Source: Candidatus Microgenomates bacterium (GTDB lineage: Bacteria; Patescibacteriota; Microgenomatia; JACQLA01). From it: DNA of 64,000 bases. Position 1 is the stretch's first letter. Every line of letters starts with the position of its first letter. The notes beneath the pieces were generated by a model. That model was not told the DNA's origin. It was given only the letters and a program-made list of their open reading frames with translations, and ran no database searches. The translations under genes and the position numbers were made by a program. Of this stretch, positions 5,738 to 52,373 are shown piece by piece. The DNA is taken from NCBI GenBank assembly GCA_016204255.1, contig JACQLA010000005.1, positions 132,339 through 196,338 on the forward strand. Reading direction: 5' to 3'.

Positions 5738-5820
5738 AGCCTTTATTTTACGTAAAAATGCCGCAGTAAGGCAAGAGATCGTAGTAATACAAAAGGGGCT
5801 AATTCCCGCAATAGGGATAG

Positions 5821-6240
5821 CTAATCGGCATCCAAAGCTTGATTGACTAGGGCATCGGCCTGGAAATTTTTTTCCCGGGGGATGTAATGGTAATTAATTT
5901 CTCCCTTGGCATCAATTTCCGCGGCCTTTGCTTGCAACAATAATTCCCGAAGGTGCGCGCTTTTTACCTTAAAAAGACCGTTGAGCTGAAAAACTACAAG
6001 CTGCGAGTCAATGTAAAAATTGGCAGTTATTAAGTGGGTACCGGTTAGTGTTTTCAGCCATTCCAGCGCTTTAACCACCGCAGTATATTCGGCCACATTA
6101 TTAGTCGTCTCACCGATTTTCTCGTTCTTTTGGGTGATAACCTCATTCTTTTCATTATAGGCAATAAATGCCCAAGCCGCCGGCCCGGGATTTCCTCTTG
6201 CCCCCCCATCACAAAAAATTTTAAGATTCATCGTCTGCAT
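5821..6240 (-). CDS. rnhA: ribonuclease HI
   Basis: LKIFCDGGARGNPGPAAWAF, ..TNNVAEYTAVVKALEW.., ..YIDSQLVV.. and C-terminal N..AD are RNase H type-1 catalytic-site contexts. Confidence 0.8.
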   Translation of the reverse strand: MQTMNLKIFCDGGARGNPGPAAWAFIAYNEKNEVITQKNEKIGETTNNVAEYTAVVKALEWLKTLTGTHLITANFYIDSQLVVFQLNGLFKVKSAHLRELLLQAKAAEIDAKGEINYHYIPREKNFQADALVNQALDAD

Positions 6241-6290
6241 AGTTTAGCAAATAGAATAACTTCTAACAACCTCTTGTACCGACAATCAAA

Positions 6291-39845: not shown

Positions 39846-40283
39846 ATGCGTATTGTAAACCGACGTGTCATTCACGACTTTCAGATTTTAGAGAAATTTG
39901 AGGCGGGGATAAACTTGACCGGTCCGGAGGTGAAGGCGGTAAAAGGGGAGCACCTGGACTTGACGGGAAGTTTTGTAAAAGTAGTCGGGAGCGAGATTTA
40001 TTTGGTTAATGCCAAAATCTATGCACCCAGTTATGCTCAATCGCAGGATTATGATTTGGCCCGAACCCGTAAACTGCTTTTACACAAAAAACAGATATTA
40101 GCGCTGAGGACAAAAATGGCCCAGAGTAATTTGACAATCGTGCCTCTGACATGCTATACTAAGCACGGTTTAATCAAGCTCGAAATAGCTTTGGCCAAAG
40201 GTAAAAAACAGTCAGACAAACGGGAAGAGTTGAGAAGAAAAGATATCGATCGGGAACTTGAACGAGAATTACGAAGAAAATAA
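39846..40283 (+). CDS. smpB: SsrA-binding protein SmpB
   Basis: NRRVIHDFQILEKFEAGINLTGPEVKA... and ...LLLHKKQI signatures; followed by the tmRNA gene. Confidence 0.9.
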   Translation: MRIVNRRVIHDFQILEKFEAGINLTGPEVKAVKGEHLDLTGSFVKVVGSEIYLVNAKIYAPSYAQSQDYDLARTRKLLLHKKQILALRTKMAQSNLTIVPLTCYTKHGLIKLEIALAKGKKQSDKREELRRKDIDRELERELRRK

Positions 40284-40301
40284 ATATAAAATATTTTAAA
40301 C

Positions 40302-40719
40302 GGGGATGTTAAGATTCGACGGGGAAGCACTTTGAAAACTGCAAGCCGACTTTGATCAAAAGCCGTTAAACAGGGTCAAAAAAACAAATGTCAACAAATT
40401 AGTTGGCAAGGTTACAGGAGCGATGAATGCGTTCGCGCGTGTTTTTACTCCGGTAGCTCCGAATTACGCTTTTGCCTAAAAGCGCTTTGGCGTAAAACGG
40501 CATTTATAGGGTTTTTTCCTGATGAGGCCTTATAGGTGTAAACCTAGTCAGGATGAGAAAAGTTGAGTAGCTGACGTCAGCTTTTCAAATAAAAAGTTAG
40601 CTAGTCTTAATTTTCCAGTCGAAAGGACCAGATTAAGGCGAAACTTTAAATTTCGACTAAGCTTGTAGAAATTTTCAATTTGAATTTCTCGGACCCGGGC
40701 TCATTACCCGGCATCTCCA
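40302..40719 (+). ncRNA. ssrA: tmRNA (ssrA); tag reading frame ends ...APNYAFA* (stop TAA 40477-40479); CCA not encoded
   Basis: 5' GGGGATGTTAAGATTCGACGGGG. 3' T-arm CCGGG/CCCGG. Acceptor GGGGATG pairs with CATCTCC, including the G3:U pair, with discriminator A. Tag ORF gct ccg aat tac gct ttt gcc taa. Confidence 0.8.
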
Positions 40720-40865
40720 CTCTTCGCTCCTAAGGTAAAACTTAGGAGCTGCGAGGTGGCACAGCCACTTTAATTAGTAAGTTCACGGGAATCATAGGCG
40801 GAGAGTGTCCCTACCGTAGCTCGCCAGAGCGAAGGGGGGCTTTTTTATTTTGATAGAATAATTTT

Positions 40866-41108
40866 GTGTATTATGTTTATATATTAAAGCTCAGAGATCA
40901 GACTCATTACATCGGATATTCGGCAGCTTTAAAAGAAAGAGTAAAAGAGCACGCTAAGGGAACTATTTCTCAAACAAAACATCTTTTACCGTGCAATCTT
41001 GTCTTTTATGCGGCTTTCTCATCTAAATTAAAGGCCTTGCAATTCGAAAAATATTTAAAAACTAACTCCGGCTTTGCTTTTAGAAATAAAAGATTGATCG
41101 AAAGATAG
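40866..41108 (+). CDS. small GIY-YIG (URI-domain) nuclease, copy 1 (80 aa)
   Basis: MYYVYILK...HYIGYS...RVKEH...VFYAAF carries the GIY/YIG/R/E pattern; lies 146 nt after the tmRNA 3' end. Confidence 0.8.
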   Translation: MYYVYILKLRDQTHYIGYSAALKERVKEHAKGTISQTKHLLPCNLVFYAAFSSKLKALQFEKYLKTNSGFAFRNKRLIER

Positions 41109-41111
41109 AAG

Positions 41112-41927
41112 ATGAAAAAATTGTATATTTTAAAACTTGGCGGAAGCCTGCTGACCGAAAAGAAAAGCGGACAGCCCAAAGCTAGAATAGCCCAAATCCA
41201 AAGGATCGCCCGGGAGATCAAGCTGGCCCAGGAGAAAAATAACTTTTCTTTAGTTCTGGTGCACGGCGTGGGTTCTTTCGGTCATCCACGGGCCCAAGAG
41301 TATAAGCTTTGGCAGGGAATCTTTAATCGGAAGCAGTATCTAGAATTTTGTCGCAATAATCTTGATGACCTGACTCTTAATAAAATTTTACTGGAGAATT
41401 TTTTAGAAAAAGATTTACCGGTTTTTCCCGTTCAGCCAAGTGCCGTAATTACCCAAGTGAATGGTAAGATAAAAACTTTTGAAACGAAGATTATTAAGGA
41501 GCTGTTGCAAAAAAATTTTATTCCCGTTCTTTACGGTAATGTGGTTTTAGACTCGGCCCTCAACGGTTCGGTTTGTTCCGGAGATGCTATTGTTTGCTAT
41601 TTAGCCAAAAAACTAAAAGCAGCTAGGGTCTTTTTTGCTACCGATGTGGATGGGGTTTATACCGCCGATCCTAATTCAGACACCCAAGCGATTCTGATAA
41701 AAAAGATCGATAAAAAAAATTTTGAGCAGATTTTCCCGGGAATTGGCAAATCAAGCGCTAAAACCGATGCCGGGGGAGGAATGAGAGGAAAAATTTTGGA
41801 GATTAAAGAACAGATTTCTCAGATTGAAACAAGTATTTTTAACGGCTCGCAACCTGAAAATATTTTTGAAGTTTTGACTGGAAAGTGTTTGGGAACCCTA
41901 ATTCGGTTTGGAGAGCGGGCAGGTTGA
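41112..41927 (+). CDS. isopentenyl phosphate kinase (amino-acid-kinase fold)
   Basis: ILKLGGSLLTEK and LVLVHGVGSFGHP match the IPK signature (LKLGGS / HGGGAFGH in archaeal IPKs, from memory). Confidence 0.7.
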   Translation: MKKLYILKLGGSLLTEKKSGQPKARIAQIQRIAREIKLAQEKNNFSLVLVHGVGSFGHPRAQEYKLWQGIFNRKQYLEFCRNNLDDLTLNKILLENFLEKDLPVFPVQPSAVITQVNGKIKTFETKIIKELLQKNFIPVLYGNVVLDSALNGSVCSGDAIVCYLAKKLKAARVFFATDVDGVYTADPNSDTQAILIKKIDKKNFEQIFPGIGKSSAKTDAGGGMRGKILEIKEQISQIETSIFNGSQPENIFEVLTGKCLGTLIRFGERAG

Positions 41928-42717
41928 CTATCAACCGCTGAATTATTTTTGATACATAGGGCCGAAAAATTTGATCGTTCGGATAGTCTTCGGGGATGTG
42001 TAGTTCTTCTCGTCCTGTTGCCACACCAGATTTTAAAAGCATCATTTTCTCTAAAGGAGAAAGTCTTTTTAAGATTGACGGCTCATGATTTTCTGAGGCG
42101 AATAACGATAAAGGAATAGCCCGAGAATCAACTGTATCTGAAATATGGCCGTCAACGCAAAAAGGAATGGGCGGGATGTCCAAGTCAGGAATGTAAGTAA
42201 CAAAAATATCTATCACGGCTCCTGCTTCATCGACAAAAATAAGTTTTTGTGCTGGTTTGAGTTTTGTTTGAACCGCCTCTTCGGGCTTGATTTGCCGTGG
42301 ATTATCGTAGATCCGCTGAAAGGGAACACTGCAATCAGTCACGATAAGAACATGTTGGTAGGGAGGTTTTTCCGTAACATTTGGAGCAGAGAAGCGTCCT
42401 AAATACACCAATTTACCGGGATTTTCAATTTTAATTCCGGTCTCAGCGTACAATTCTCGCTCTGCCGTTTTACGCGCTGCCCCTTTTTCTATAGATCCAT
42501 CCTTATCTTCGTTTACACGCCCGACTGGAAACGAGGAAGACCCGCAAACTTTTAAGAGACCATAATCGGTTCTAGTCTCCGTAATAAAAACTGCTGAAGG
42601 GCCATTTTCAGTATCGGTAAGTACGATAGTTCCAGCAGTATGCAGTCTTCCGTTTTCCCGGCGACAATAAGCAGGGGCGGGCTCTTTTGATAAAAGGACT
42701 TCGTGTGGATTTCTCAT
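41839..42717 (-). CDS. NUDIX-domain protein with a C-terminal extension
   Basis: Nudix box GRVNEDKDGSIEKGAARKTAERELYAETGI (G-x5-E-x7-REUxEExGU-like); its 3' end overlaps the IPK gene convergently by 89 nt. Confidence 0.55.
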   Translation of the reverse strand: MRNPHEVLLSKEPAPAYCRRENGRLHTAGTIVLTDTENGPSAVFITETRTDYGLLKVCGSSSFPVGRVNEDKDGSIEKGAARKTAERELYAETGIKIENPGKLVYLGRFSAPNVTEKPPYQHVLIVTDCSVPFQRIYDNPRQIKPEEAVQTKLKPAQKLIFVDEAGAVIDIFVTYIPDLDIPPIPFCVDGHISDTVDSRAIPLSLFASENHEPSILKRLSPLEKMMLLKSGVATGREELHIPEDYPNDQIFRPYVSKIIQRLIVNLPALQTELGFPNTFQSKLQKYFQVASR

Positions 42718-42724
42718 AGTAAAA

Positions 42725-43453
42725 TTGATCGTCGTATACTACTATAAAGGTGTGATTTTATCAACTTTACTGGATCTTTTTTTCCCCAAGCGCTGTGTGG
42801 CATGCGGGAAGCATGGTTTCTATCTTTGTTTTTCATGCTTATCCCAGATTAAGTTTGTTAAAGATCCAGTTTGTCCGCTTTGCGAGCGTCCAGCGATCGG
42901 CGGCGCTGCTCATCCGGGTTGTCAAAAACAAAACAGCCTTGACGGTTTAATTTCTGTCTGTTTTTATCAGGGGCCGTTAAGGGAAGCTATTAAGCGGTTG
43001 AAATATAAACCGTGGATTACGGATTTGGGGCAGATTTTAGGTGAGATAATGATTAAAAACGAAAGGTTGTTGCGATTGATTAGTGATAAGGGCCAATGGT
43101 TTCTTATCCCGATTCCCCTGCATCCTAGCCGGGAAAGACAACGCGGGTTTAATCAATCGGAAATTTTAGGCAGGTTACTAGCTGAAAAATTAAAAATAGA
43201 CTTTAGTCCTGCCTTGCTGGTTCGGCAAAAAAGAACTTTACCACAGGCAGAATTACGGGGGACGGAGCGACAGCAAAATATCAGAGGCGTTTTTTCTCTC
43301 AACCCTCGAATTAATAAAAAGATTGATCTAAGGAATCGATCGATTCTTTTAATTGATGATGTTTGGACAACAGGTGCAACATTGCGTGCCGGCGGCCAAA
43401 TTCTTAAAAAATCCGGGGCAAAACGAGTTTGGGGTCTAACTCTGGCGCGTTGA
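42725..43453 (+). CDS. comF: ComF-family phosphoribosyltransferase-like protein
   Basis: N-terminal Cys4 (CVACG..CFSC..CPLC) and PRTase loop LLIDDVWTTGATL. Confidence 0.75.
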   Translation: MIVVYYYKGVILSTLLDLFFPKRCVACGKHGFYLCFSCLSQIKFVKDPVCPLCERPAIGGAAHPGCQKQNSLDGLISVCFYQGPLREAIKRLKYKPWITDLGQILGEIMIKNERLLRLISDKGQWFLIPIPLHPSRERQRGFNQSEILGRLLAEKLKIDFSPALLVRQKRTLPQAELRGTERQQNIRGVFSLNPRINKKIDLRNRSILLIDDVWTTGATLRAGGQILKKSGAKRVWGLTLAR

Positions 43454-43478
43454 ATCGAGGCTCGTTTTTTGCTATACT
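43450..43478 (+). promoter_or_regulatory. candidate promoter for tRNA-Ser(GCT): TTGAAT, 17-nt spacer, TATACT
   Basis: Read directly from the sequence; 10 nt upstream of the tRNA 5' end. Confidence 0.45.
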
Positions 43479-43488
43479 CAAGCTGACT

Positions 43489-43574
43489 GGAGGAGTGACC
43501 GAGTGGCTTATGGTGCAGGTTTGCTAAACCTGTGTCCTGTAAAGGGCGCGTGGGTTCGAATCCCACCTCCTCCG
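43489..43574 (+). tRNA. tRNA-Ser(GCT), class II, CCA not encoded
   Basis: Hand-folded cloverleaf: acceptor GGAGGAG/CTCCTCC, anticodon loop TTGCTAA, long variable arm, T-arm GTGGG-TTCGAAT-CCCAC. Confidence 0.85.
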
Positions 43575-43577
43575 CAA

Positions 43578-43644
43578 CGTAAGAAATCGCTAGGCGATTT
43601 CAACGTTGCTGGAGCGTTGAAATTCACGAAGTGAATTTCTTACG
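43578..43644 (+). repeat. 67-nt nested-palindrome leader (element D) between tRNA-Ser(GCT) and GIY-YIG copy 2
   Basis: CGTAAGAAAT|CGC-TAG-GCG|ATTTCAACG-TTGCTGGAG-CGTTGAAAT|TCAC-GAA-GTGA|ATTTCTTACG. All four helices are perfectly complementary. Confidence 0.7.
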
Positions 43645-43652
43645 CTGCCGCC

Positions 43653-43913
43653 ATGTTCTATTATGTATATATTCTCCGAAGCCAAAAAAGTGGTAGTCTG
43701 TATATCGGATATACGACAGATTTAATAAAGAGGTTCGAACAGCATAATAACGGTAAAAGTCAAGCAACAAAGCCATTCCGACCCTATAAACTTATTTATT
43801 ATGAAGCGTTTTTGGATAGAGTTGATGCAAAGAGGAGAGAGGTATATCTGAAAAGTGGATATGGGAGAAAAACGATAAATAGATTACTTAACAAATATTT
43901 AAAGCAGGGTTAG
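43653..43913 (+). CDS. small GIY-YIG nuclease, copy 2 (86 aa)
   Basis: MFYYVYILRS..LYIGYTTDL..RFEQH..LIYYEAF. Confidence 0.85.
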   Translation: MFYYVYILRSQKSGSLYIGYTTDLIKRFEQHNNGKSQATKPFRPYKLIYYEAFLDRVDAKRREVYLKSGYGRKTINRLLNKYLKQG

Positions 43914-43936
43914 AATATAAAAAATATATTAAGTTT

Positions 43937-44341
43937 ATGGAAATAACAAACGAAAAACTTATCCAAAGGGCACAAAAAATAGTTAAACCAACTAAGCAGC
44001 GGAATGGTTTTTCGATTGCTGATTGTGGGGCCGCTTTGTTGACGGATAAGGGAAATATTTATTTGGGGTTAAGTATTGATACTCCATCAAGTATGGGTTT
44101 TTGTAGCGAACATGCAGCAATAGCTACCATGGTTACTGCCGGAGAATATAAAATCAAAAAAATTGTGGCAGTTCTTGAAGACGGCACAATTTTACCCCCA
44201 TGCGGAAGATGCCGCGAATTCATTTACCAAATTGATAGAGGAAATTTGGAGACAGAGGTGATAATTGCCGAGAACGAAGTGGTTAAACTGAAAGATTTAC
44301 TTCCTTATCCGTGGGATGAGAATTTAGAAAATAGGTTCTAA
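43937..44341 (+). CDS. cdd: cytidine deaminase
   Basis: Zinc ligand motifs CSEHAAI and PCGRCREF. Confidence 0.8.
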   Translation: MEITNEKLIQRAQKIVKPTKQRNGFSIADCGAALLTDKGNIYLGLSIDTPSSMGFCSEHAAIATMVTAGEYKIKKIVAVLEDGTILPPCGRCREFIYQIDRGNLETEVIIAENEVVKLKDLLPYPWDENLENRF

Positions 44342-44370
44342 TGGTGCCAATGGTTCGCCGCAGATATAGA

Positions 44371-44459
44371 GGAAGGGTGTCCGAGTGGTTTAAGGAGATG
44401 GTCTTGAAAACCATTGGATCGTAAGATCCTCGTGGGTTCGAATCCCACCCCTTCCGCCA
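44371..44459 (+). tRNA. tRNA-Ser(TGA), CCA encoded
   Basis: Acceptor GGAAGGG/CCCTTCC, anticodon loop CTTGAAA, long variable arm, T-arm GTGGG-TTCGAAT-CCCAC, GCCA 3' end. Confidence 0.85.
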
Positions 44460-44478
44460 ATTTTTTAAAACTTTTGAT

Positions 44479-44838
44479 ATGAGTATAAAAATTGAGAGAG
44501 CAAATCTTGCTCCCCAAATAGCTTATGATCTTGAGGCTCAAGCGATCACTATTCAGTGGGCTTTAACGGAAGGAGAGCTGGTTAAAATTGCACGTTTTCT
44601 GGAACGGGTTGAGTTAATTGAAGAGCTCGGACTCGAATGGTACCGATTGTATTATAAAAGTGATCAGGGTGATTCAGTGGCCACTGTTTGTAAAGAACAT
44701 GTAGATCAAGCAGTGTTAGATGAAATGAATACCGGAGACACGATGACTTTTATTCAAACCCGAGAGCGAAAGCCAGAAGTTTTTGACGGGCGAGAATTGT
44801 GCGCAGTAGCCGCAATCCTGTCGGGAGAACAGCTTTAA
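44479..44838 (+). CDS. hypothetical protein (119 aa)
   Basis: ORF track only. Confidence 0.4.
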   Translation: MSIKIERANLAPQIAYDLEAQAITIQWALTEGELVKIARFLERVELIEELGLEWYRLYYKSDQGDSVATVCKEHVDQAVLDEMNTGDTMTFIQTRERKPEVFDGRELCAVAAILSGEQL

Positions 44839-44944
44839 AGAAGAAAAAATAACCCGAAGCACCAATTAAATTAATGCCGACATCTTGAAGGCCGAGAAAA
44901 TGATATAATTATTGTGTTCTTCAAGAACAACAAAAGGAGGAAGT

Positions 44945-45562
44945 ATGCCTGCCCGAGAAAATTTAACGGTTATAAGCTCGCAAACGCCTAAAAATAATCC
45001 AGGCGGAGCTCAAAACCAGGTTAGCACATTGAAAGAAAATTCAGGTAAAGAGCAAGAAGAGGTTAGAACTCTCCTTTCCTGGAAGGCAAATTCCCGGCCC
45101 TTTAAAGAGCGGGGGAAGGAGTATTTTAAAACCCTGGGAGCGATTCTTTTTTTTGTCAGTGTGGTTTTGCTTTTTATCAAAGAGTGGCTTTTAATCGGGG
45201 CGATTTGGGCTTTTTTCTTTATTACGTATGTTTTAAGCCGGGTTCCGCCCGAAGATGTTGAGCACAAGATTACTACTCAAGGTATTACGACCGGAGGAAA
45301 AGTTTATCTTTGGCGGGAATTGTCAGACTTCTGGTTTACTCAAAATCATGGCCAGACAGTCTTAAACATTGATATCCTGCCGACAGGGAGGGTTAGATTT
45401 TTAGGACGGCTGCTGATTCTTTTGGGTGATCAATCCGAAACAAAAGTCAGAGAAATTTTGGCTAAATACTTGTCCTACCGCGAGATTCCGGAAAAAAACT
45501 GGATGGATAACGCAAGCGGTTGGCTGGCCAGAAAAATTCCGCTGGAAAAAAGTACAAACTAA
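44945..45562 (+). CDS. two-TM membrane protein (start moved to MPARENL)
   Basis: AGGAGG at 44934-44939, 5 nt before the ATG at 44945; TM pair LGAILFFVSVVLLFI / LLIGAIWAFFFITYVL. Confidence 0.5.
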   Translation: MPARENLTVISSQTPKNNPGGAQNQVSTLKENSGKEQEEVRTLLSWKANSRPFKERGKEYFKTLGAILFFVSVVLLFIKEWLLIGAIWAFFFITYVLSRVPPEDVEHKITTQGITTGGKVYLWRELSDFWFTQNHGQTVLNIDILPTGRVRFLGRLLILLGDQSETKVREILAKYLSYREIPEKNWMDNASGWLARKIPLEKSTN

Positions 45563-45586
45563 TTTCTGCCCGGATCACAACTGTTT

Positions 45587-45660
45587 GTGCCCGTAGCTTA
45601 ACTGGATAGAGCACAAGATTGCGGATCTTGAGGTTGGAGGTTCAAGTCCTCCCGGGCACG
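45587..45660 (+). tRNA. tRNA-Arg(GCG), CCA not encoded
   Basis: Acceptor GTGCCCG/CGGGCAC, anticodon stem CAAGA/TCTTG with loop TTGCGGA, T-arm GGAGG-TTCAAGT-CCTCC. Confidence 0.8.
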
Positions 45661-45662
45661 CA

Positions 45663-45723
45663 ACGTACAAAATCAAAGATTTTTACGTTGCTGAGACGTA
45701 AAATTACTTTGTAATTTGTACGT
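45663..45723 (+). repeat. 61-nt nested-palindrome leader (element A) between tRNA-Arg(GCG) and GIY-YIG copy 3
   Basis: ACGTACAAA|ATC-AAA-GAT|TTTTACGT-TGCTGAG-ACGTAAAA|TTAC-TTT-GTAA|TTTGTACGT. Same architecture as element D with different helix sequences. Confidence 0.7.
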
Positions 45724-45730
45724 CTCGCCC

Positions 45731-45982
45731 ATGTATTTTGTTTATGTGCTCAGAAGCGATAAAGATGCTAGCCTATACATAGGCTATACGGGTAATCTGA
45801 AAAAGCGTTTTATAGAGCACATCACCGGTTTGTCATTAGCCACGAGATATAAAAGACCTTACTCATTGATCTACTATGAAGCTTTTGTAGATAGAGTTGA
45901 CGCAAAAGACAGGGAAATTTATTTGAAAAGCGGCTGGGGCTTTAGAAGCATAAAAAAGATATTAAAGCGGTCTTTAAAGTAG
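45731..45982 (+). CDS. small GIY-YIG nuclease, copy 3 (83 aa; start moved from 45716 to the MYFVYVLRS ATG)
   Basis: MYFVYVLRS..LYIGYTGNL..RFIEH..LIYYEAF. The other copies all start directly at the M(Y/F)(Y/F)VY motif. The stop lies 2 nt before tRNA-Ser(CGA). Confidence 0.85.
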   Translation: MYFVYVLRSDKDASLYIGYTGNLKKRFIEHITGLSLATRYKRPYSLIYYEAFVDRVDAKDREIYLKSGWGFRSIKKILKRSLK

Positions 45983-45984
45983 CT

Positions 45985-46068
45985 GGAGGGTTGGCCGAGC
46001 GGTTTAAGGCGCTGGTTTCGAAAACCAGTGGGCGTAAGCCCTCACAGGTTCGAATCCTGTACCCTCCG
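45985..46068 (+). tRNA. tRNA-Ser(CGA)
   Basis: Acceptor GGAGGGT/ACCCTCC, anticodon loop TTCGAAA, long variable arm, T-arm ACAGG-TTCGAAT-CCTGT. Confidence 0.85.
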
Positions 46069-46098
46069 CCCGTATCGCTAACGAAACTTCGCTAAGTT

Positions 46099-46172
46099 GT
46101 GCCCGTAGCTCAGTGGATTAGAGCATCAGTTTCCGGAACTGGGGGTCGGAGGTTCGAATCCTCCCGGGCACG
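46099..46172 (+). tRNA. tRNA-Arg(CCG)
   Basis: Acceptor GTGCCCG/CGGGCAC (identical to the GCG isoacceptor), anticodon loop TTCCGGA, T-arm GGAGG-TTCGAAT-CCTCC. Confidence 0.85.
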
Positions 46173-46183
46173 CAGTTAATTTT

Positions 46184-46267
46184 GGAGGAGTCGGATAGCG
46201 GTTCATTCCACACGCTTGGAAAGCGTGCGAGCGCAAGCTCACGTGGGTTCGAATCCCACCTCCTCCG
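46184..46267 (+). tRNA. tRNA-Ser(GGA)
   Basis: Acceptor GGAGGAG/CTCCTCC, anticodon stem CACGC/GCGTG with loop TTGGAAA, variable arm GAGC-GCAA-GCTC, T-arm GTGGG-TTCGAAT-CCCAC. Confidence 0.85.
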
Positions 46268-46269
46268 CA

Positions 46270-46312
46270 GCGTCAAACGCGGCTGGGACGTAAAATTACT
46301 GGCAATTTGCGT
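46270..46312 (+). repeat. solo leader-like element C (hairpin, GGCTGGG linker, ACGTAAAATT hairpin) with no GIY-YIG ORF
   Basis: GCG-TCAAA-CGC, GGCTGGG, ACGTAAAATT-ACTGGC-AATTTGCGT. Shares the GCTGGRACGTAAAATTAC core with elements A and B. Confidence 0.6.
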
Positions 46313-46334
46313 CTTGCCATTGATTATCTCTACT

Positions 46335-46757
46335 ATGAAAATAATGATTTGCGGTAGCATGCATTTTTCCCGGGAAATGATGATCGCCAAGGAAAAGCTG
46401 GAAAAAGCCGGCCACCAGGTTTCACTGCCAACCGATATTGATCTCCATTTAAACGACCCCGAGTTTATTGATAATTTTGATTTAAATTACGAACATTGTT
46501 TAAAAAACGATGTCATGTGGAAATGTTTTGATCTGGTGGCTCAAGCCGAGGCCATTTTGGTTTTAAATTATCCCCGCAGCGAAATTTCGGGTTACATTGG
46601 GGCCTCATCTTTAATGGAGATCGGCCTGGCTTATTATTTACATAAAAAAATCTTTCTTTTATATCCTGTCCCCAAACCATCTCAGGCCCGCTGGGCTCAT
46701 GAAATTGAGATTATTCAGCCGGTGATTTTAAACGGCGATTTGTCCAAAATCAAATAG
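46335..46757 (+). CDS. nucleoside 2-deoxyribosyltransferase-like protein (start moved out of the tRNA to MKIMICGS)
   Basis: The track ORF start (46182) runs through tRNA-Ser(GGA). MKIMICGSM... and ...SSLMEIGLAYYLHKKIFLL resemble the NDT-like fold. Weak call. Confidence 0.45.
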   Translation: MKIMICGSMHFSREMMIAKEKLEKAGHQVSLPTDIDLHLNDPEFIDNFDLNYEHCLKNDVMWKCFDLVAQAEAILVLNYPRSEISGYIGASSLMEIGLAYYLHKKIFLLYPVPKPSQARWAHEIEIIQPVILNGDLSKIK

Positions 46758-46776
46758 ATTTTTTACGCGTCAGCTT

Positions 46777-48618
46777 TTGAGTCGTGGTAGAATGGGGAAC
46801 ACAATGGACCAGCTCGAGGAAATAAAATCCAAAATTGATATCGTTGAGTTTCTCAACAACTACCTTTCCTTAAAAAAAGCCGGCCGAAATTTTAAAGCCA
46901 ATTGTCCCTTCCATTCGGAAAAAACAGCCTCATTTATAATCTCGCCCGAGCGACAGATCTGGCATTGTTTTGGGGCCTGTAATGACGGCGGGGATATTTT
47001 CAAATTTTTGATGAAATGGGAAAATTTGGAATTTCCCGAGGCTTTAAAAATCTTGGCCCAGCGCGCCGGCGTTGCTTTAAAAGAATATCCGGTCGGCGAA
47101 GCTTTACAAAAAAAAGAGAAAATTTTTGCCGTTAACCACATGGCCTCAGAATTTTACCATTATTTGCTTCTAAATCATCCCGCCGGTAAAAAAGCCCTGG
47201 ACTATCTGCGTCAAAGAGGGATTAAAGATAAATCCATTGAACTGTTTCGGATTGGTTATGCCCCCAATCTTTGGGAGGGTTTAAGCAAGTATTTGGTGGG
47301 GAAAAAAGGTTATAAGATAAATGATTTGGAGCAGGCGGGGCTTATAGTCAGAAGCGGCCCGCGGACCTACGACCGTTTTCGGGGAAGACTGATGTTTACT
47401 TTAAAAAATCATCGCGGACAGGTAGTCGGTTTTGCCGGAAGAATTCTGGAGGATTTAAAAGAAGCCCCACTTCGCCCCGCTCAAGGCGGGGCTTCGCAGG
47501 GGCAAGCAAAGTATATTAATACGCCCGAAACCTCAGTTTACATTAAAGGCGAGATTTTATACGGGATGGATTTGGCAGCTGATGCTATAAAAAAGGAAAA
47601 TTTGGCCATTTTAGTTGAGGGAGAGCTTGATGCAATTCAGGCCTTTCAAGCCGGAACCTCCAATATCGTGGCGATTAAAGGCAGCGCTTTAACCGAAGGT
47701 CAAATCACGCTTTTAAAACGATTCACGGAAAATATTGCCTTAGCTTTAGATCAGGATCTGGCCGGGGAGGCCGCGGCCCGGCGGGGAATTGAGATGGCTG
47801 ATCAGGCCGGATTAAATATTCGTGTTATTCAAATTAAAGAGGGTAAAGACCCGGATGAGTGCTTAAGAAAAAATCCTGCCGCCTGGTTTGCGGCCTTAAA
47901 AAACGCCCGCTCTTTTTATGATTTTTTATTTCAGTCCTCCCTTGATCGCCATAGCGGGGAAACGCCTGAAGACAAAAAGAAAATTGGCGAGGAACTTTTG
48001 CCCACTTTGGCCAAAATCTCAAATGAGATTGTCAAAGCTCATTATCTTAAGAAACTGGCTCAGGAACTGGAGATTTCCGAGGAGGGAGTGCGGGCGGCGA
48101 TTAATAAATTGGAAAAGAAAGAGAAGGGCAAGGGGGAGGAGCGGAAAATAATTTCTCGATCAACCCGGGACGAAATCTTGGAAGAATATTTACTGAGCTT
48201 ACTTTTACAAAGCAAAAACCCGCAAGAGCTATTAAAAGATATCGGGGATAAAATAACCTGCGAAAACCCGGGAAAGTGCTTTTTACATCCGGCCCTGCAA
48301 AAAATATTTAAATCTCTGATTGAGTATTTAAACAATTTAGGCAGCAATGAATTTGTCATTGACCGCTTCACCCGCAGCCAGCCAAAAGAGCTGACGGATC
48401 TGATTGACCGGCTTTATCTGACTGATTTGGGCGAATTTACCGCCGGTGAGACAATGGAGAAAGAGTTTAAAAAGGCGGCGCTGGAGCTTAAAAGCCTGGC
48501 TTTACGGCGGCGGTTGAAACAGCTGACCGCAATGATCAAGGAAGAAAGTGATGAAGGGAAAGTGGAGTCTTTAAGTCGACAGTTTCAACAAATATCCACT
48601 GAGCTTAGAAAAAATTGA
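46777..48618 (+). CDS. dnaG: DNA primase DnaG
   Basis: Zinc ribbon CPFHSEKTASF..CFGC, TOPRIM (LVEGELDAI...DQDLAG), KYINTPET motif; the true start may be the ATG at 46804 (MDQLEE). Confidence 0.9.
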   Translation: MSRGRMGNTMDQLEEIKSKIDIVEFLNNYLSLKKAGRNFKANCPFHSEKTASFIISPERQIWHCFGACNDGGDIFKFLMKWENLEFPEALKILAQRAGVALKEYPVGEALQKKEKIFAVNHMASEFYHYLLLNHPAGKKALDYLRQRGIKDKSIELFRIGYAPNLWEGLSKYLVGKKGYKINDLEQAGLIVRSGPRTYDRFRGRLMFTLKNHRGQVVGFAGRILEDLKEAPLRPAQGGASQGQAKYINTPETSVYIKGEILYGMDLAADAIKKENLAILVEGELDAIQAFQAGTSNIVAIKGSALTEGQITLLKRFTENIALALDQDLAGEAAARRGIEMADQAGLNIRVIQIKEGKDPDECLRKNPAAWFAALKNARSFYDFLFQSSLDRHSGETPEDKKKIGEELLPTLAKISNEIVKAHYLKKLAQELEISEEGVRAAINKLEKKEKGKGEERKIISRSTRDEILEEYLLSLLLQSKNPQELLKDIGDKITCENPGKCFLHPALQKIFKSLIEYLNNLGSNEFVIDRFTRSQPKELTDLIDRLYLTDLGEFTAGETMEKEFKKAALELKSLALRRRLKQLTAMIKEESDEGKVESLSRQFQQISTELRKN

Positions 48619-48652
48619 AATTTTGTGCCTAAAGGAGTAGAATAAACTTAGA

Positions 48653-49741
48653 ATGGCAAAGAAAAACCCAGTCCTATCCGCCAAGCAGTTGTTGACTAAG
48701 GCTAAAAAACGAGGGTATATTACCCAGGATGAAATTCTGGCGGTTTATCCCCAGGCGGAAAAACACATCGTCGAAATTGATTTGCTTTATGACCGGCTCC
48801 TGCGGGACGGGATTGATATTTTTGAATCCGTCTCCGAACCGGCCGAAGGCAAGGCCGAAATTTCCAAACTGGAAAAAGAGCTGGATGATTTGGTAACCCT
48901 GGATCAGGGAATTGCTTCCAACGACCCGGTCAGGATGTATCTTAAAGAAATCGGTCGGGTACCACTCTTGATTTTTGAAGAGGAAATTGCTTTGGCCAAA
49001 AGAGCGGAAAAGGGTGATAAAGCGGCCCGACATAAGCTGATTGAATCTAACTTAAGACTAGTTGTTTCAATCGCTAAAAAATATGTCGGCCGAGGATTAA
49101 GTCTTATGGATTTAATTCAGGAAGGCAATATCGGTCTGCAGAAAGCAGTGGAAAAATATAATTGGCGCAAAGGTTATAAGTTTTCAACCTATGCGACCTG
49201 GTGGATTAGGCAAGCTATAACCCGGGCGATTGCCGATCAGGCTCGGACCATCCGTATCCCGGTTCATATGGTGGAAACCATCAACCGCTATATCCGGATT
49301 AACCGCCGGATGATGCAAGAGCTGGGAAGAGAGCCGCTAGCTGAGGAAGTGGCTGAGGCCATGGGTGTGGATGTAGCCAAAATCCGCGAGATCATCAAAG
49401 TTTCTCAGGAGCCGACTTCGCTTGAAACGCCAGTGGGAGATGAGGAAGACTCGCATTTAGGCGATTTTATAGAAGATACAAAAGTTGCCGGGCCTTATGA
49501 TGCGACCTCGCGGGCCCTTTTAAAAGAGCAGATCGAAGAAGTTTTATCCACCTTAAACGACCGGGAGAAAAAAGTTTTAATCCTGCGTTTTGGTTTGGAA
49601 GACGGCCGTCCCCGGACTTTGGAAGAGGTGGGGCGGGAGTTTCAGGTGACCCGTGAGCGAATTCGTCAGATCGAGTCAAAGGCTTTGCGAAAATTAAAGC
49701 ATCCCTCAAGAAGTAAAAAGCTGCGCGATTACCTAGAATAA
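48653..49741 (+). CDS. rpoD: RNA polymerase primary sigma factor (sigma-70 family)
   Basis: Regions 1.2-4.2 are present: [61 protein letters not shown]. Confidence 0.9.
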
Positions 49742-51175
49742 ATGGTATCCACCAAGATTATTGCCACCATCGGCCCATCTTGCGATTCAATACACAGGAT
49801 TAAAAATCTTATTCGCGCTGGAGTGAATGTCTTCCGTTTCAACTTAAAACACAATACTCAAGTTTGGCATAGTGAACGCATTGCTCGCGTACGTCAGGCG
49901 AGCAGGGAACTTCAATTACCGGCGGCAATCCTTCTTGATCTTCAAGGACCGGATATTCGCATCGGTAGTTTTAAAGATGGCGAAATTTTACTTAAAAAGA
50001 AAGAAATAGTTTTTTTTGTTCTCAGCCCGAGTAATAAAAAAAGGAAAGAAATTATCATCGATAGCCTTTCTCTTTTAGAGAAATTAGAGAAGAATCACGA
50101 ATTCACTATAGATGATGGCCGCTTCCGTTTCCGGGTGGTGGGAAAAACAAAAAAGGAAATAGAAGCCAAAGTTTTGGAAGGCGGGATTTTAAAAAGTCAA
50201 AAGGGAGTTAATACCCCGGGTCTTGAATTGGATTTGCCGACCTTGGTCAAAAAAGATTTAGAAGATATTTCTTTGGCCGCCCGGGAGGATGTTGATTTTG
50301 TCGCTTTATCCTTTGTCCGCAGCGTTCAAGATATTGAGATTTTGAAAAGTGAGCTTGATCGACAAAAACTTAAGGCCAAAATCATTTCCAAAATTGAAAC
50401 AGTCCAGGCCTTGCAAAATTTTGAAGAGATTTTGAAACAAACCGATGGCGTGATGATTGCCCGCGGCGACTTGGGTGTGGAGTTGGCATTGGAGCAGGTC
50501 CCCTTTTATCAAAAAGAAATTATTAAACGCTGTTTGGAAGTGGGAAAACCGGTCATTACCGCCACTCAAATGCTTGAAAGCACGATTGTCGAGCCCTATC
50601 CGACCCGGGCTGAGGTTAGCGATGTGGCCAATGCGATTTATGATTTTACCGATGCGGTGATGTTATCAGCTGAAAGTGCGATCGGTAAACATCCGGAGGC
50701 GGCGGTGAAAATGATGGTTAAAATCGCCGGTTTTATTGAAGGAAAACGTCCTCGTCCCGAAAAGCTAAATTTTGAGGTTAGACATCAAACCGCCGCTGTG
50801 ACCTTTTCCGCCCATAATCTTTGGGAAAGTGAATTTTGTCAAAAGGAAAAGATCAGGGCCTTTGTTGTTTTGACCGAAACCGGGATGAGCGCCCGGATGC
50901 TTGCCCGTCTGCGTCCCCAAATTCCCATCCTGGCTTTAACCAGACACGCAAAAATTAGAGACCAGTTGCTTTTGGTTTGGGGTGTCACCCCGATACTTTC
51001 CAATCATGTTAACAACCCCTACGGCAAAAAAACTGTTGAGCAAATTCGGCAAATGCTTAAGGTTATTAAAGAGAAAAAATATGTTAAATCCGGAGAAAAA
51101 GTGATTATGGTTTATGGTGAGGATTGGGGAACCCCGGGAAAAACCTCGGTTGTCCGCATTCAAGAAGTGAATTAA
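49742..51175 (+). CDS. pyk: pyruvate kinase
   Basis: TKIIATIGPS, FRFNLKH, IARGDLGVE, MLSAESA motifs; the start abuts the rpoD stop. Confidence 0.9.
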   Translation: MVSTKIIATIGPSCDSIHRIKNLIRAGVNVFRFNLKHNTQVWHSERIARVRQASRELQLPAAILLDLQGPDIRIGSFKDGEILLKKKEIVFFVLSPSNKKRKEIIIDSLSLLEKLEKNHEFTIDDGRFRFRVVGKTKKEIEAKVLEGGILKSQKGVNTPGLELDLPTLVKKDLEDISLAAREDVDFVALSFVRSVQDIEILKSELDRQKLKAKIISKIETVQALQNFEEILKQTDGVMIARGDLGVELALEQVPFYQKEIIKRCLEVGKPVITATQMLESTIVEPYPTRAEVSDVANAIYDFTDAVMLSAESAIGKHPEAAVKMMVKIAGFIEGKRPRPEKLNFEVRHQTAAVTFSAHNLWESEFCQKEKIRAFVVLTETGMSARMLARLRPQIPILALTRHAKIRDQLLLVWGVTPILSNHVNNPYGKKTVEQIRQMLKVIKEKKYVKSGEKVIMVYGEDWGTPGKTSVVRIQEVN

Positions 51176-51236
51176 AATAGGCTGGATTTCTTCTTATTTG
51201 AATGATAAAATAGCAAGCGTAATTTAATACAATCCG

Positions 51237-51287
51237 CCACGTCTAGCGTGGCTGGAACGTAAAATTACTTTGTAATTTATACGTTCC
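51237..51287 (+). repeat. leader element B (hairpin CCACG-TCTAG-CGTGG, CTGGA linker, long hairpin GGAACGTAAAATTAC-TTT-GTAATTTATACGTTCC)
   Basis: The second hairpin differs from that of element A by a single G-to-A substitution (ACGTAAAATTACTTTGTAATTT[G/A]TACGT). Confidence 0.6.
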
Positions 51288-51337
51288 GCGGTAGCTCTCC
51301 GCCAGCTGGCGGAGGTAGAGTGGCGTCCTAAAGATAA

Positions 51338-51589
51338 ATGTATTTTGTGTACGCTATTTATAATAGAAAACACGGTAAAATTTATATTGGGCAAACGAAA
51401 GATTTAGAAACAAGATTGTATCTTCATGAAGAACATGTGTTTAACAATAGTTTTACCGCCATGTTTGATGGAGCTTGGGAATTAATTTATAAAGAGGCGG
51501 TGGAGGATCGCAGACGAGCTTTGTTAAGAGAAAAACAACTCAAAAGTTTTAGAGGAAGAGAATTTGTAAAAAGACATATTCCGCGGTAG
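51338..51589 (+). CDS. small GIY-YIG nuclease, copy 4 (83 aa); stop codon lies inside tRNA-Asn
   Basis: MYFVYAIYN..IYIGQT..RLYLH..LIYKEA; the last codons ccg cgg tag are tRNA-Asn positions 2-10. Confidence 0.75.
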   Translation: MYFVYAIYNRKHGKIYIGQTKDLETRLYLHEEHVFNNSFTAMFDGAWELIYKEAVEDRRRALLREKQLKSFRGREFVKRHIPR

Positions 51590-51654
51590 CTCAATGGTAG
51601 AGCAAATCCCTGTTAAGGATGAGGTTGCTGGTCCGAATCCAGCCCGCGGAGCCA
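51580..51654 (+). tRNA. tRNA-Asn(GTT), CCA encoded
   Basis: Acceptor TCCGCGG/CCGCGGA, D-arm GCTC-AATGGTA-GAGC, anticodon loop CTGTTAA, T-arm GCTGG-TCCGAAT-CCAGC, GCCA 3' end. Confidence 0.85.
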
Positions 51655-51689
51655 AGCGGCACTTAATATACCCAAAAAGAAACGTATTT

Positions 51690-52373
51690 ATGGCGCCTAC
51701 CCCTTTAGATACAAAACATTATAAGATTCAGAATCTGGAAAAAATTGCTGAATTGGTGGGATGTAAAGATAGACTAGAAAAATATATTGGAGATATAGAA
51801 AAAGTTTTTCCTACCATAGAAGAGATATTCGGTAAAAAATGGAATGACGATTACATTTATATTGAGCTGACTGATTCTACAGATTCTGGTGGATATGGTC
51901 GTCCAGGTGGTCGTCATGCTGTCTCTATAGGAATTTACGATAAAATTATTCAGGAAAAAGAGTATCCAGAAAATTTGTGGGGTTGTTTGCTTCACGAAAC
52001 TTTACATGCATTTATGAATCCAATTATTCATGGACCACCCGAAAGGTCTAAACAGGGAGGTCCAAATAAATTAGATGGATGTTTTGATAATGAACCTTTT
52101 ACTAGAGCTTTCCAAGGATTAGTCTATCTATCTTTGAAGAAAAAAGGGGAGATAACTACCGATTTATGTAATGAGTTTTTAAATAGATTAGAAAACGAAT
52201 TAAATCAAGAAGCACGGATTAGACTTTATAAAAGATATATCACTTTTTTTACGAAAAATGCTAGTTTTTTCTCAATATTTATAAGGAATTTGGATTTGTC
52301 TCCAAGCTCCATTATCCGAGATAATTTTTGGGAAGATTTAGAAAAACTTGAGAAAAAGGTAGAGGGTATTTAA
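51690..52373 (+). CDS. HExxH-motif protein (putative zinc metallopeptidase-like); start moved downstream of the tRNA
   Basis: LLHETLHAFMNP; the track start 51594 lies inside tRNA-Asn, and the first ATG after the tRNA is 51690. Confidence 0.45.
   Translation: MAPTPLDTKHYKIQNLEKIAELVGCKDRLEKYIGDIEKVFPTIEEIFGKKWNDDYIYIELTDSTDSGGYGRPGGRHAVSIGIYDKIIQEKEYPENLWGCLLHETLHAFMNPIIHGPPERSKQGGPNKLDGCFDNEPFTRAFQGLVYLSLKKKGEITTDLCNEFLNRLENELNQEARIRLYKRYITFFTKNASFFSIFIRNLDLSPSSIIRDNFWEDLEKLEKKVEGI

Follow-up and report, generated by a model that had tools for sequence, protein, structure and literature searches.

Why should four very small nuclease genes each lie directly against a tRNA or transfer-messenger RNA (tmRNA) gene? 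The question is raised by a 64,000-nt stretch of a contig from a Candidatus Microgenomates bacterium, an ultra-small member of the Patescibacteria (GenBank JACQLA010000005.1, positions 132,339 to 196,338 of the forward strand; the window below). The initial annotation had recognised four open reading frames (ORFs) there with the GIY-YIG nuclease pattern, and had proposed that they are either free-standing homing-endonuclease-like cassettes or mRNAs expressed and matured as part of tRNA precursors. Comparison with related loci, all drawn from metagenome assemblies, indicates that the four ORFs (c1 to c4) represent three subfamilies of predicted minimal GIY-YIG nucleases of 80-86 aa that occur throughout the Patescibacteria. 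We favour, with moderate confidence, the view that they are selfish, homing-endonuclease-like cassettes that would use tRNA and tmRNA genes as landing sites, sources of homology and promoters.

The four ORFs are present as described, each above the Pfam gathering score for PF01541 (46.6-62.1 bits against a cut-off of 22.6, E-values of 4e-12 to 6e-17), and the reported distances to RNA genes were right to within 1-3 nt. The 80-aa c1 (40866-41108, GTG start, E = 6.8e-13) begins 143-146 nt past the end of the tmRNA gene (40302-40722; Rfam RF00023, 119 bits), while c2 (43653-43913, 86 aa, E = 6e-17) starts 78 nt past the end of tRNA-Ser(gct) (43489-43575). The Pfam-matched c3 (45731-45982, 83 aa from its ATG, in a frame that extends upstream to a TTG at 45716) starts 70 nt past the end of tRNA-Arg(gcg) (45587-45661) and ends 1-2 nt before tRNA-Ser(cga) (start 45984/45985, end 46071), and c4 (51338-51589, 83 aa, E = 4.5e-14) overlaps tRNA-Asn(gtt) (51580-51654) by 10 nt. 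All four ORFs and their anchoring RNA genes lie on the forward strand. The window contains seven tRNA genes and one tmRNA gene, all within 11 kb (ARAGORN, Rfam); with eight such genes in 64 kb, the chance of an ORF starting within 150 nt downstream of one is about 2%, and we estimate p at about 3e-5 for three of four ORFs being so placed by chance.

The copies are old paralogues, as had been suggested: c1 shares 32-39% identity with the others, c2 and c3 share 61%, and the four fall into three distinct, widely distributed subfamilies. In c1 numbering, the positions without variation among the four are Y5, Y15-I-G, R25, H29 and E61, catalytic residues that are conserved also in the alignments of the S-type and N-type subfamilies defined below. 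The invariant Glu sits in an (R/F)E-x-YLK motif and aligns with the UPF0213 Glu; a Y(Y/K)EA Glu, which the initial annotation had assigned to every copy, is missing from c1, which reads FYAAF. More than 500 homologues were found for each of c2 and c4 across many Patescibacteria lineages, those of c2 being up to 85% identical. A profile of the c2 subfamily matched the UPF0213 proteins BH0048 (1zg2, 1.4e-9) and EF2693 (1ywl, 3.8e-7) as well as SLX1 (9e-5) in hmmsearch. An AlphaFold2 model of c2 (pLDDT 86.5; strands 3-10, 16-21 and 45-53, helices 24-32, 56-67 and 69-83) has the three beta strands and flanking helices of the GIY-YIG fold. Its top Foldseek matches were 1zg2 and Slx1, with probability 1.0 each and TM scores of 0.61-0.68 for Slx1; I-TevI was far weaker (TM 0.46-0.56, E > 0.5) and UvrC was weak too. 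The C-terminal zinc-finger (RING/PHD) domain of eukaryotic Slx1 is absent from the 80-86-aa proteins, which in this resemble the minimal prokaryotic members of a published survey (PMC1564403). The four ORFs thus appear, from sequence and model, to encode bare catalytic domains of the Slx1/UPF0213 branch of GIY-YIG with predicted endonuclease activity, a branch that the survey calls the minimal, possibly ancestral, form (PMC1564403).

Coupling to tRNA and tmRNA genes holds far beyond the window, with fixed junctions in relatives that were chosen by protein similarity alone and retrieved with separate subfamily alignments. Both c2 and c3 belong to the putative S-type cassette, which is situated 3' of a tRNA (Ser, Asp, Arg) or tmRNA gene and comprises a conserved two-hairpin leader followed by the ORF. 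The S-type sample consisted of 80 loci (prefix L), one genome per species, picked solely by similarity to c2 and c3. Of their 80 nuclease genes with sufficient upstream sequence, 65 lie at most 200 nt (mostly 70-125 nt) downstream of a tRNA on the same strand, namely tRNA-Ser in 47 (all isoacceptors), tRNA-Asp in 13, tRNA-Arg in four and tRNA-Thr in one. The S leader is ordered as hairpin A, which starts from the discriminator base G, then GCUG, hairpin B and (C)GCC, and the ATG follows directly or within about 20 nt, abutting hairpin B; the leader as a whole measures 70-150 nt.

The structured leader noted at the outset is real: a repeat is common to the leaders of c2, c3 and c4 and to an ORF-less site after tRNA-Ser(gga), with folding z-scores of -5.4 to -6.0 relative to shuffles, and the c1 leader is different. 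A covariance model of this leader (R1) returned four sites in the window, none of them at c1. The c2 leader (43576-43652, forward strand, 84 bits, z-score -5.8) is made up of hairpin A (43576-43607), GCTG (43608-43611), hairpin B (43612-43648), CGCC and the ATG. The c3 leader (45662-45730, forward strand, 67 bits, z-score -6.0, repeat family D5) likewise has hairpin A (45662-45689), GCTG, hairpin B (45694-45726), GCCC and the ATG. A solo leader of the same D5 family (46269-46318, forward strand, 29 bits, E = 2e-5) directly follows tRNA-Ser(gga) (46184-46268) with no nuclease ORF after it, and reads as a short hairpin A GCGTCAAACGC, GGCTG, hairpin B and GCC; the same tRNA-Ser(gga) bears a full cassette in L002. 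The fourth site (51233-51286, forward strand, 47 bits) precedes the tRNA-Asn unit.

In a 33-sequence alignment of the S leader the hairpins were 96.3% paired and 17 pairs showed compensatory change (124 cells), a level of covariation reached by none of 500 shuffles, while slid controls were about 40% paired. The initial annotation had noticed neither this family-wide covariation nor the solo leader. G-U pairs outnumbered A-C mismatches by 14 to 2, which argues that the structure is selected on the sense strand, most simply as RNA. Hairpins A and B have identical stems and complementary internal loops (AA/A versus U/UU), so the covariance model scores the reverse strand too. An alternative long-range fold, with the 5' arm of A pairing with the 3' arm of B in a cloverleaf-like form, was rejected, since the partners that it needs vary independently and the local hairpins covary. 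Identification of the leader as tRNA-like or another known RNA was also abandoned, as no Rfam 15 model matched any leader at E-values up to 10.

Counts of modules and cassettes refer to the sampled loci around the matches. Among 100 modules, 82 are followed by a nuclease gene, 11 lie after a tRNA without one and seven are in neither situation. Every S-type ORF with available upstream sequence has a module, and most tRNA-Ser and tRNA-Arg genes in these loci have none. The modules are at times nested or tandem. Nesting takes the form of symmetric arm duplications, observed for S-type hairpins in six loci (L009, L013, L024, L052, L073, L077) and for N-type hairpins in seven (L084, L086, L091, L105, L110, L112, L117), a pattern that may reflect repair templated by the hairpin or insertions made repeatedly into its centre. 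Other hairpins were also seen at tRNA 3' ends: L069 (5243-5430) has one S-type hairpin between convergent tRNA-Arg(gcg) and tRNA-Ser(gga) genes that provides a trailer for both, and further lineage-specific families of hairpin trailers, of the forms CTGTAAAAC..GTTTTACAG-TGTAAAC and (GC-rich) TTTCACC..GAAGC..GGTTTCAGCG, were found in L165 (5785-5815 and 6655-6690) and in the tRNA-Ser 3' flanks of L013, L055, L058 and L062. Structured repeats at tRNA 3' ends appear to be general in these genomes.

The arrangement of c4 is of another kind. In the putative N-type cassette, an insertion in the 5' part of tRNA-Asn, or rarely tRNA-Lys, carries a replacement tRNA 5' end, so that a hairpin-interrupted copy of tRNA nt 1-26 would be left upstream and an intact tRNA regenerated downstream. 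At c4, nt 1-13 of tRNA-Asn (TCCGCGGTAGCTC) are found at 51285-51297 and again at 51580-51592, a duplication overlooked in the initial annotation. The upstream copy is continued by the palindrome TCCGCCAGCTGGCGGA, a CCGCC-type hairpin that takes the place of the D-loop (51298-51313), and by the 3' half of the D-arm, GGTAGAG (51314-51320), all upstream of c4; comparison with 51580-51603 delimits the duplicated 5' part as 51285-51321 on the forward strand. The S-type module in front of this unit consists of TCCGCC, hairpin A (51237-51251), CTG and hairpin B (51255-51286), which through its 3' arm shares the opening nucleotides of the duplicated tRNA 5' part. A fold of 51233-51657 simply returned the local tRNA and the leader hairpins. 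Nucleotides 1-10 of the tRNA-Asn gene encode the C-terminal I-P-R and stop codon of c4, the TAG being nt 8-10. Nearly all c4 homologues are exactly 83 aa long and end in an invariant I-P-x-stop.

The N-type sample was obtained from 80 metagenomic loci picked by protein similarity, which reduced to 72 non-redundant loci. The ORF overlaps the tRNA 5' end by 10-11 nt in 44 of the 72 (three at tRNA-Lys, the rest at tRNA-Asn(gtt)), and a tRNA lies within 50 nt in a further 11. Upstream of nearly all N-type ORFs stand the tRNA's own nt 1-13, the palindrome TCCGCCAGCTGGCGGA (sometimes nested), GGTAGAGC, 10-25 nt and the ATG, and a -10-like box occurs further upstream of the duplicated part. Both c4 and the family at large show a directly repeated tRNA segment by which the gene is regenerated. 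In 46 of 53 loci the upstream acceptor 7-mer agrees with the one in the local tRNA, against a mean of 7.2 and a maximum of 16 on shuffling, and the tRNA-Lys loci carry Lys-type repeats. Selection on this 7-mer at the RNA level was considered and tentatively rejected: the mismatched cases, which are few, mostly break pairing with the 3' acceptor strand. The identity of the 7-mer may therefore fit DNA duplication or conversion better.

A group I intron around c4 was also considered and rejected. Rfam searches gave no Intron_gpI or other ribozyme match in or around the cassettes, neither in the window at the gathering threshold nor in 40250-52000 at E-values up to 10. Rfam was run on ten of the N-type loci in which ARAGORN detected no tRNA, and in five of the ten it placed a group I intron just after the ORF (L101 2264-2510, L109 2260-2473, L111 2262-2461, L117 2203-2469 and L128 2231-2469). 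In these loci the nuclease cassette and the intron appear to share one tRNA-Asn gene, with the intron inside the tRNA and not around the ORF; intron-containing tRNA-Asn genes of this kind have been described (PMC13011429).

The putative T-type cassette, represented by c1, is positioned 3' of tmRNA or tRNA-Ser and has a GC-rich structured leader followed by the ORF, a description of the leader that draws on few sequences. The c1 leader fills the tmRNA-c1 spacer (40723-40865, forward strand, z-score -3.3), reads TTCGCTCC..GGAGCTGCGAGGTGGC..GAGCGAAGGGGGGC and then a T-run, and is unmatched by the S-type covariance model. Its opening, TTCGCTCC..GGAGCTRCGARGTG, is shared with L055. Genes like c1 also follow the tmRNA 3' end in L030, L042 and L055; others follow tRNA-Ser, behind GC-rich TTCGC..GCGAAG trailers. 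The tmRNA genes of the window, L030, L041, L042 and L055 were missed by ARAGORN and detected by Rfam with 84-119 bits. That of the window ends in ..CTCC-A-CTC with no encoded CCA. In L041 the tmRNA is followed by an S-type gene, and its 3' end (2895-2915) reads CTCC-G-CAACG, with a discriminator G where A is the rule; it looks as though a tRNA-Ser-type end had arrived together with the cassette.

The synteny comparison proposed by the initial annotation turned up relatives lacking the copies, including an exact empty tRNA-Asn site. Syntenic regions were taken from the closest relatives (the window primase has no homologue above 62% identity), in which the order smpB, tmRNA, comF, tRNA-Ser(gct), tRNA-Ser(tga), tRNA-Arg(gcg), tRNA-Ser(cga), tRNA-Arg(ccg), tRNA-Ser(gga), dnaG, rpoD is kept. 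The window has four nuclease copies in this region, L163 and L164 have one, and L165 and L161 have none, although L161 is the closest genome (83% RpoD identity). In L161, a minimal S module, TCCGCC-GCGTCAAACGC-GGCTG-GAACGTTTGACGTTC, lies directly against a tRNA-Asn gene that has no interruption. This module recurs in the window, where it is followed in turn by nt 1-13 of the tRNA, the palindrome, the nuclease ORF and then the complete tRNA. The two loci, which like all relatives compared with the window come from different species and not from a strain-level pair, thus form an empty and a filled site, the latter with an insert of about 295 bp placed in the D-loop region. The tRNA-Asn of L163 carries a palindrome and GTAGAGC scar without an ORF. 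Truncated nuclease ORFs (L058_1932, L069_2137) and solo or eroded modules, including one in L052 with hairpin B deleted, were also found.

Exchange between cassettes is suggested by L010 and L021, two copies of a single genome that lie after tRNA-Asp and tRNA-Ser(gct), respectively; they are about 99% identical over about 230 nt, from the 3' arm of hairpin B to approximately codon 70, and diverge abruptly on both sides; we read this tract as a gene conversion. In the protein tree, the Arg-linked clade stands apart, with c3 clustering with L051, L072 and L080, all after tRNA-Arg, and tRNA-Ser isoacceptors and tRNA-Asp are mixed elsewhere. Where loci have neighbouring genes in common with the window, their nucleases are identical to the window copies at 63-78% (S-type) or 57-69% (N-type) of positions; in the same loci identity is 53-70% for RpoD and 31-57% for ComF, SmpB and DnaG. 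The 63-78% range is as high as that of RpoD or higher, and well above that of the other three, and yet no copy is present in the syntenic region of the closest genome. The counterpart of c2 in L015 has both flanks in common with it, ComF and cdd.

Several other observations concern the surroundings of these genes. In the window, smpB (39846-40283) is directly upstream of tmRNA, and the gene after c1 begins at 41112. The slot between tRNA-Arg(gcg) and tRNA-Ser(cga), occupied by c3 in the window, holds in L161 (6631-6867) an ORF of 78 aa that is unrelated, has a good Shine-Dalgarno sequence and lacks any Pfam match; the slot seems to be a hotspot for small inserts. L164 has a 342-aa ORF (5276-6304) with a weak LAGLIDADG_3 match between comF and tRNA-Ser(gct), which was not called in L163, although L163 encodes the same primase protein. 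Two DnaG homologues of about 990 aa (P0267, P0318) contain intein/LAGLIDADG domains that the window primase (46777-48618) lacks. A large serine recombinase gene (52383-54068, reverse strand; Resolvase, Recombinase and Zn_ribbon_recom domains) lies about 730 nt downstream of tRNA-Asn, and serine recombinase genes abut tRNA-Asn in L163 (14439-16025) and L165 (17972-20701), one of them with a terminase-like GpA_ATPase, an arrangement suggestive of a prophage or integrative element for which the 3' side of tRNA-Asn serves as the site. Two mechanically called ORFs, 51594-52373 and 43153-43566 (reverse strand), start inside or run through tRNA genes; the true start of the former is probably the ATG at 51690, and the latter is likely spurious.

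A consensus scan, in which the total number of sites was not above that in shuffled sequence, placed promoter-like sites upstream of the tmRNA gene (40131-40160), tRNA-Ser(gct) (43450-43478, forward strand, TTGAAT-17-TG-TATACT, 11 nt upstream of the gene) and the tRNA-Asn unit (51150-51178). The site at 43450-43478 is probably the promoter of the tRNA-c2 unit. In the stretch from tRNA to ORF the same unenriched scan returned neither promoter-like nor terminator-like sites; no Shine-Dalgarno sequence precedes the S-type start codons, and the leader hairpins carry the sense-strand G-U bias. The other proposal of the initial annotation, that the cassette ORFs are mRNAs matured within tRNA precursors, is therefore plausible, and it would be compatible with homing.

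The homing-like reading is partly supported, and it is the one best backed by the comparative evidence: fixed junctions in hundreds of loci, presence and absence among relatives, the empty site, the scar, truncated copies and the conversion tract. Features expected of homing elements are seen, namely a fixed position by a conserved gene that is left functional, presence/absence polymorphism with an empty site, and decaying copies. From the sequences we infer DNA cleavage and co-transcription of the cassettes. In the mechanism that we propose, tRNA genes would offer a strong promoter, homology on the flanks and a landing site that is very conserved. The nuclease would break the ends of tRNA genes, or else the hairpin or cruciform that its own palindromic leader forms as DNA, and the latter would fit a structure-specific enzyme of the Slx1 type, Slx1 being known to cut stem-loop and branched DNA. 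If repair then copied a filled allele or a paralogue, the cassette could be spread or homogenised. The ORF would be transcribed by read-through from the tRNA promoter, with the leader hairpins folding in the RNA to part tRNA maturation from the mRNA. At N-type loci, cleavage by RNase P at tRNA-Asn +1 would strip c4 of its last three codons and stop codon, so that full-length nuclease could be made only from the unprocessed precursor.

These ideas can be joined in a more specific and distinctly tentative proposal, in which the cassettes would form a new class of minimal mobile element: hairpin or cruciform DNA of the leader at tRNA gene ends would guide the ~85-aa Slx1-like nuclease, in place of a DNA-binding domain ("structure-guided homing"), and expression would be wired to tRNA maturation. 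RNase P processing and full-length translation of N-type transcripts would then be mutually exclusive, processed transcripts would be non-stop mRNAs for tmRNA to act upon, and the two-hairpin RNA of S-type cassettes would act as a gate through which the mRNA is freed from its tRNA precursor.

Several points weigh against homing. To our knowledge, every characterised GIY-YIG homing enzyme has a DNA-binding domain, unlike these proteins, in which Pfam and the AlphaFold2 model revealed no domain beyond the ~80-aa catalytic core, and the lack of such a domain leaves site specificity unexplained. No conserved right end or right-flank homology was found for S-type cassettes, and the G-U bias points to selection of the leader at least in part as sense-strand RNA. 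N-type identity is near RpoD values, with the order rpoD, N-type ORF, tRNA-Asn widely conserved; such conservation is unusual for a purely selfish gene, and the N-type pattern is also compatible with old vertical inheritance and loss. A search of IMG/VR viral contigs found no relatives, and GenBank phages yielded only distant GIY-YIG genes (at most 44% identity) and no carrier. GIY-YIG ORFs have also been reported in non-intron insertions within rRNA genes of bacteria from the Candidate Phyla Radiation (CPR), and the authors judged them unlike homing elements (PMC11270868).

Some of these points would be accommodated if the proteins were resident, vertically inherited repair or DNA-scavenging nucleases of the Slx1/UPF0213 type that have simply become part of tRNA transcription units in compact genomes, their mRNAs freed by RNase P and RNase Z, the hairpins serving as processing or stability signals and the patchy distribution reflecting repeated loss. 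Retention of the catalytic residues, RpoD-level conservation, the widespread synteny of rpoD, N-type ORF and tRNA-Asn, the shared ComF and cdd flanks of c2 and its L015 counterpart, the sense-strand G-U bias and a tRNA-ORF gap with no promoter-like or terminator-like site would all suit such genes. We nevertheless consider this unlikely, since close relatives have anywhere from zero to four copies in the same syntenic 12-kb block, scars and truncated ORFs occur, and a recent conversion tract joins cassettes at different tRNAs. Further, the tree mixes tRNA-Ser isoacceptors with tRNA-Asp, the N-type design with its duplicated tRNA 5' part recurs at tRNA-Lys with Lys-type repeats, and multiple paralogues per genome are hard to square with a housekeeping nuclease. 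The chance that small ORFs simply fell near tRNAs in a gene-dense, tRNA-rich region is close to nil. Although seven tRNA genes and the tmRNA gene are crowded into 11 kb of the window, the same fixed-distance junctions recur in 65 of 80 S-type and at least 55 of 72 N-type relatives, where we would expect fewer than one in 80 for random genes (assuming about 45 tRNAs in a genome of about 1 Mb), and these counts, together with the match of the 7-mer to the local tRNA, refute chance adjacency.

Two further explanations shift the emphasis from the gene to its partners. The palindromic modules could be the primary element, similar to repetitive extragenic palindromes (REPs) or miniature inverted-repeat transposable elements (MITEs), with the GIY-YIG protein as the structure-specific nuclease that mobilises or processes them; by analogy with REPs and their associated RAYT transposases, the ORF-bearing copy would be autonomous and the solos non-autonomous. 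This would suit the Slx1-like protein, given the known action of Slx1 on branched and stem-loop DNA, the nested and tandem modules (the N-type palindrome is nested too), the scoring of the module on both strands, and the ORF-less modules found after tRNAs (11 of 100), before them (L060, L161, window 51233-51286) and between convergent tRNAs (L069). It is made improbable by the near confinement of modules to tRNA flanks in the sampled loci, with four in the 64-kb window, and by the excess of G-U over A-C, which suggests constraint on RNA; the solos may equally be cassettes that have lost their ORF, as with the deleted hairpin B of L052. Alternatively, the nucleases might act on RNA, processing or surveying tRNA and tmRNA precursors, for example by removing hairpin trailers, and be encoded beside their substrates. 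We know of no GIY-YIG enzyme that cleaves RNA, most tRNA-Ser and tRNA-Arg genes in the sampled loci lack both module and nuclease, close relatives lack the genes in the syntenic region, and the N-type architecture is a signature of DNA insertion. An action on RNA is thus very improbable, despite the strict physical coupling to tRNA and tmRNA genes, the covarying sense-strand leader that begins at the discriminator base, and a prokaryotic fusion of an Slx1-like domain to a TrmH tRNA methyltransferase, from which a survey suggested a role in RNA metabolism (PMC1564403).

If the cassettes are homing-type elements, as we favour, they would be the smallest known, with a bare catalytic domain and a hairpin leader, and duplication of a tRNA 5' part would be a new way into an essential gene that requires neither intron nor intein. 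The family, with at least 322 matches in species-representative genomes and at least 330 in metagenomes, would account for a large share of the Patescibacteria annotations as "GIY-YIG nuclease family protein". The S leader is a candidate structured RNA family with strong covariation. The systematic overlap of a protein gene with tRNA-Asn should be flagged, as annotation pipelines and tRNA finders will mishandle it, and the N-type design opens to testing the idea that RNase P processing competes with translation and that tmRNA serves as the sink. Structure-specific nucleases this small, whose DNA or RNA partners are defined, could be of use as tools as well.

A literature search of incomplete coverage found no description of tRNA/tmRNA-linked mini GIY-YIG cassettes, the two-hairpin leader or the tRNA-Asn duplication, and each known system resembles the cassettes in part. 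Integrase-based genomic islands and prophages target tRNA and tmRNA genes and regenerate them with a duplicated segment. N-type cassettes share the tRNA target, the direct repeat and the intact gene regenerated by a duplicated segment; they differ in being only about 295 bp long, in encoding a nuclease and not a recombinase, and in duplicating the 5' and not the 3' part. No tyrosine or serine recombinase was found in the cassettes, which contain the leader and nuclease ORF only, the serine recombinase at 52383-54068 being outside and downstream. Group I introns that interrupt tRNA genes have the same host tRNA-Asn in L101, L109, L111, L117 and L128, whereas the cassette ORF lies outside the mature tRNA, whose function is kept by duplication and not by splicing. 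REP elements with RAYT transposases and nested MITEs are known palindromic-repeat systems, and like them the cassettes have short imperfect palindromes, single, tandem or nested, tied to one small nuclease-type gene. The cassettes differ in encoding a GIY-YIG protein and not an HUH transposase, in having the two hairpins on the same side of the gene and in modules that are bound to tRNA gene ends. Punctuation of polycistronic transcripts by tRNAs is known in mitochondria; here too ORFs abut tRNAs, apparently without promoters of their own, and RNase P and RNase Z cuts would set the mRNA ends, but at N-type loci the RNase P cut would remove the stop codon.

The bacterial UPF0213 proteins lack an established function, and we know of no report that links them to tRNA genes. 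The UPF0213/YhbQ/YazA and Slx1 proteins (1zg2, 1ywl, 4xlg, 7cq2; PMC1564403; PMC7017083) are the best sequence and fold matches, with a minimal GIY-YIG domain, the two Tyr, Arg-x-x-x-His and the helix Glu in common; Slx1 differs in its C-terminal zinc-finger domain and its need for Slx4. The CPR rRNA insertions (PMC11270868) share the bacterial group, stable-RNA host genes and the lack of a recognisable self-splicing intron. Those insertions are sparse, lie inside 16S and 23S genes and come with no mention of tRNA, whereas the cassettes are associated with tRNA and tmRNA genes and their architectures are kept in hundreds of loci. By analogy, the nearest functional counterpart of the cassettes would be T4 SegB, a free-standing GIY-YIG homing enzyme encoded in a phage tRNA cluster (PMC2330249; reviewed in PMC2988022). 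In SegB and related T4-like free-standing homing endonucleases, as in the cassettes, the GIY-YIG gene lies outside any intron, among tRNA genes, and is patchily distributed. SegB owes its preferential inheritance to a double-strand break with conversion of the tRNA region, a route that would be similar in the cassettes. The Seg proteins are phage-encoded, about 200 aa or longer and equipped with DNA-binding domains; the cassettes, by comparison, encode a catalytic domain of 80-86 aa in cellular Patescibacteria, have junctions at fixed positions and a hairpin leader that covaries, and in one type duplicate the tRNA 5' part.

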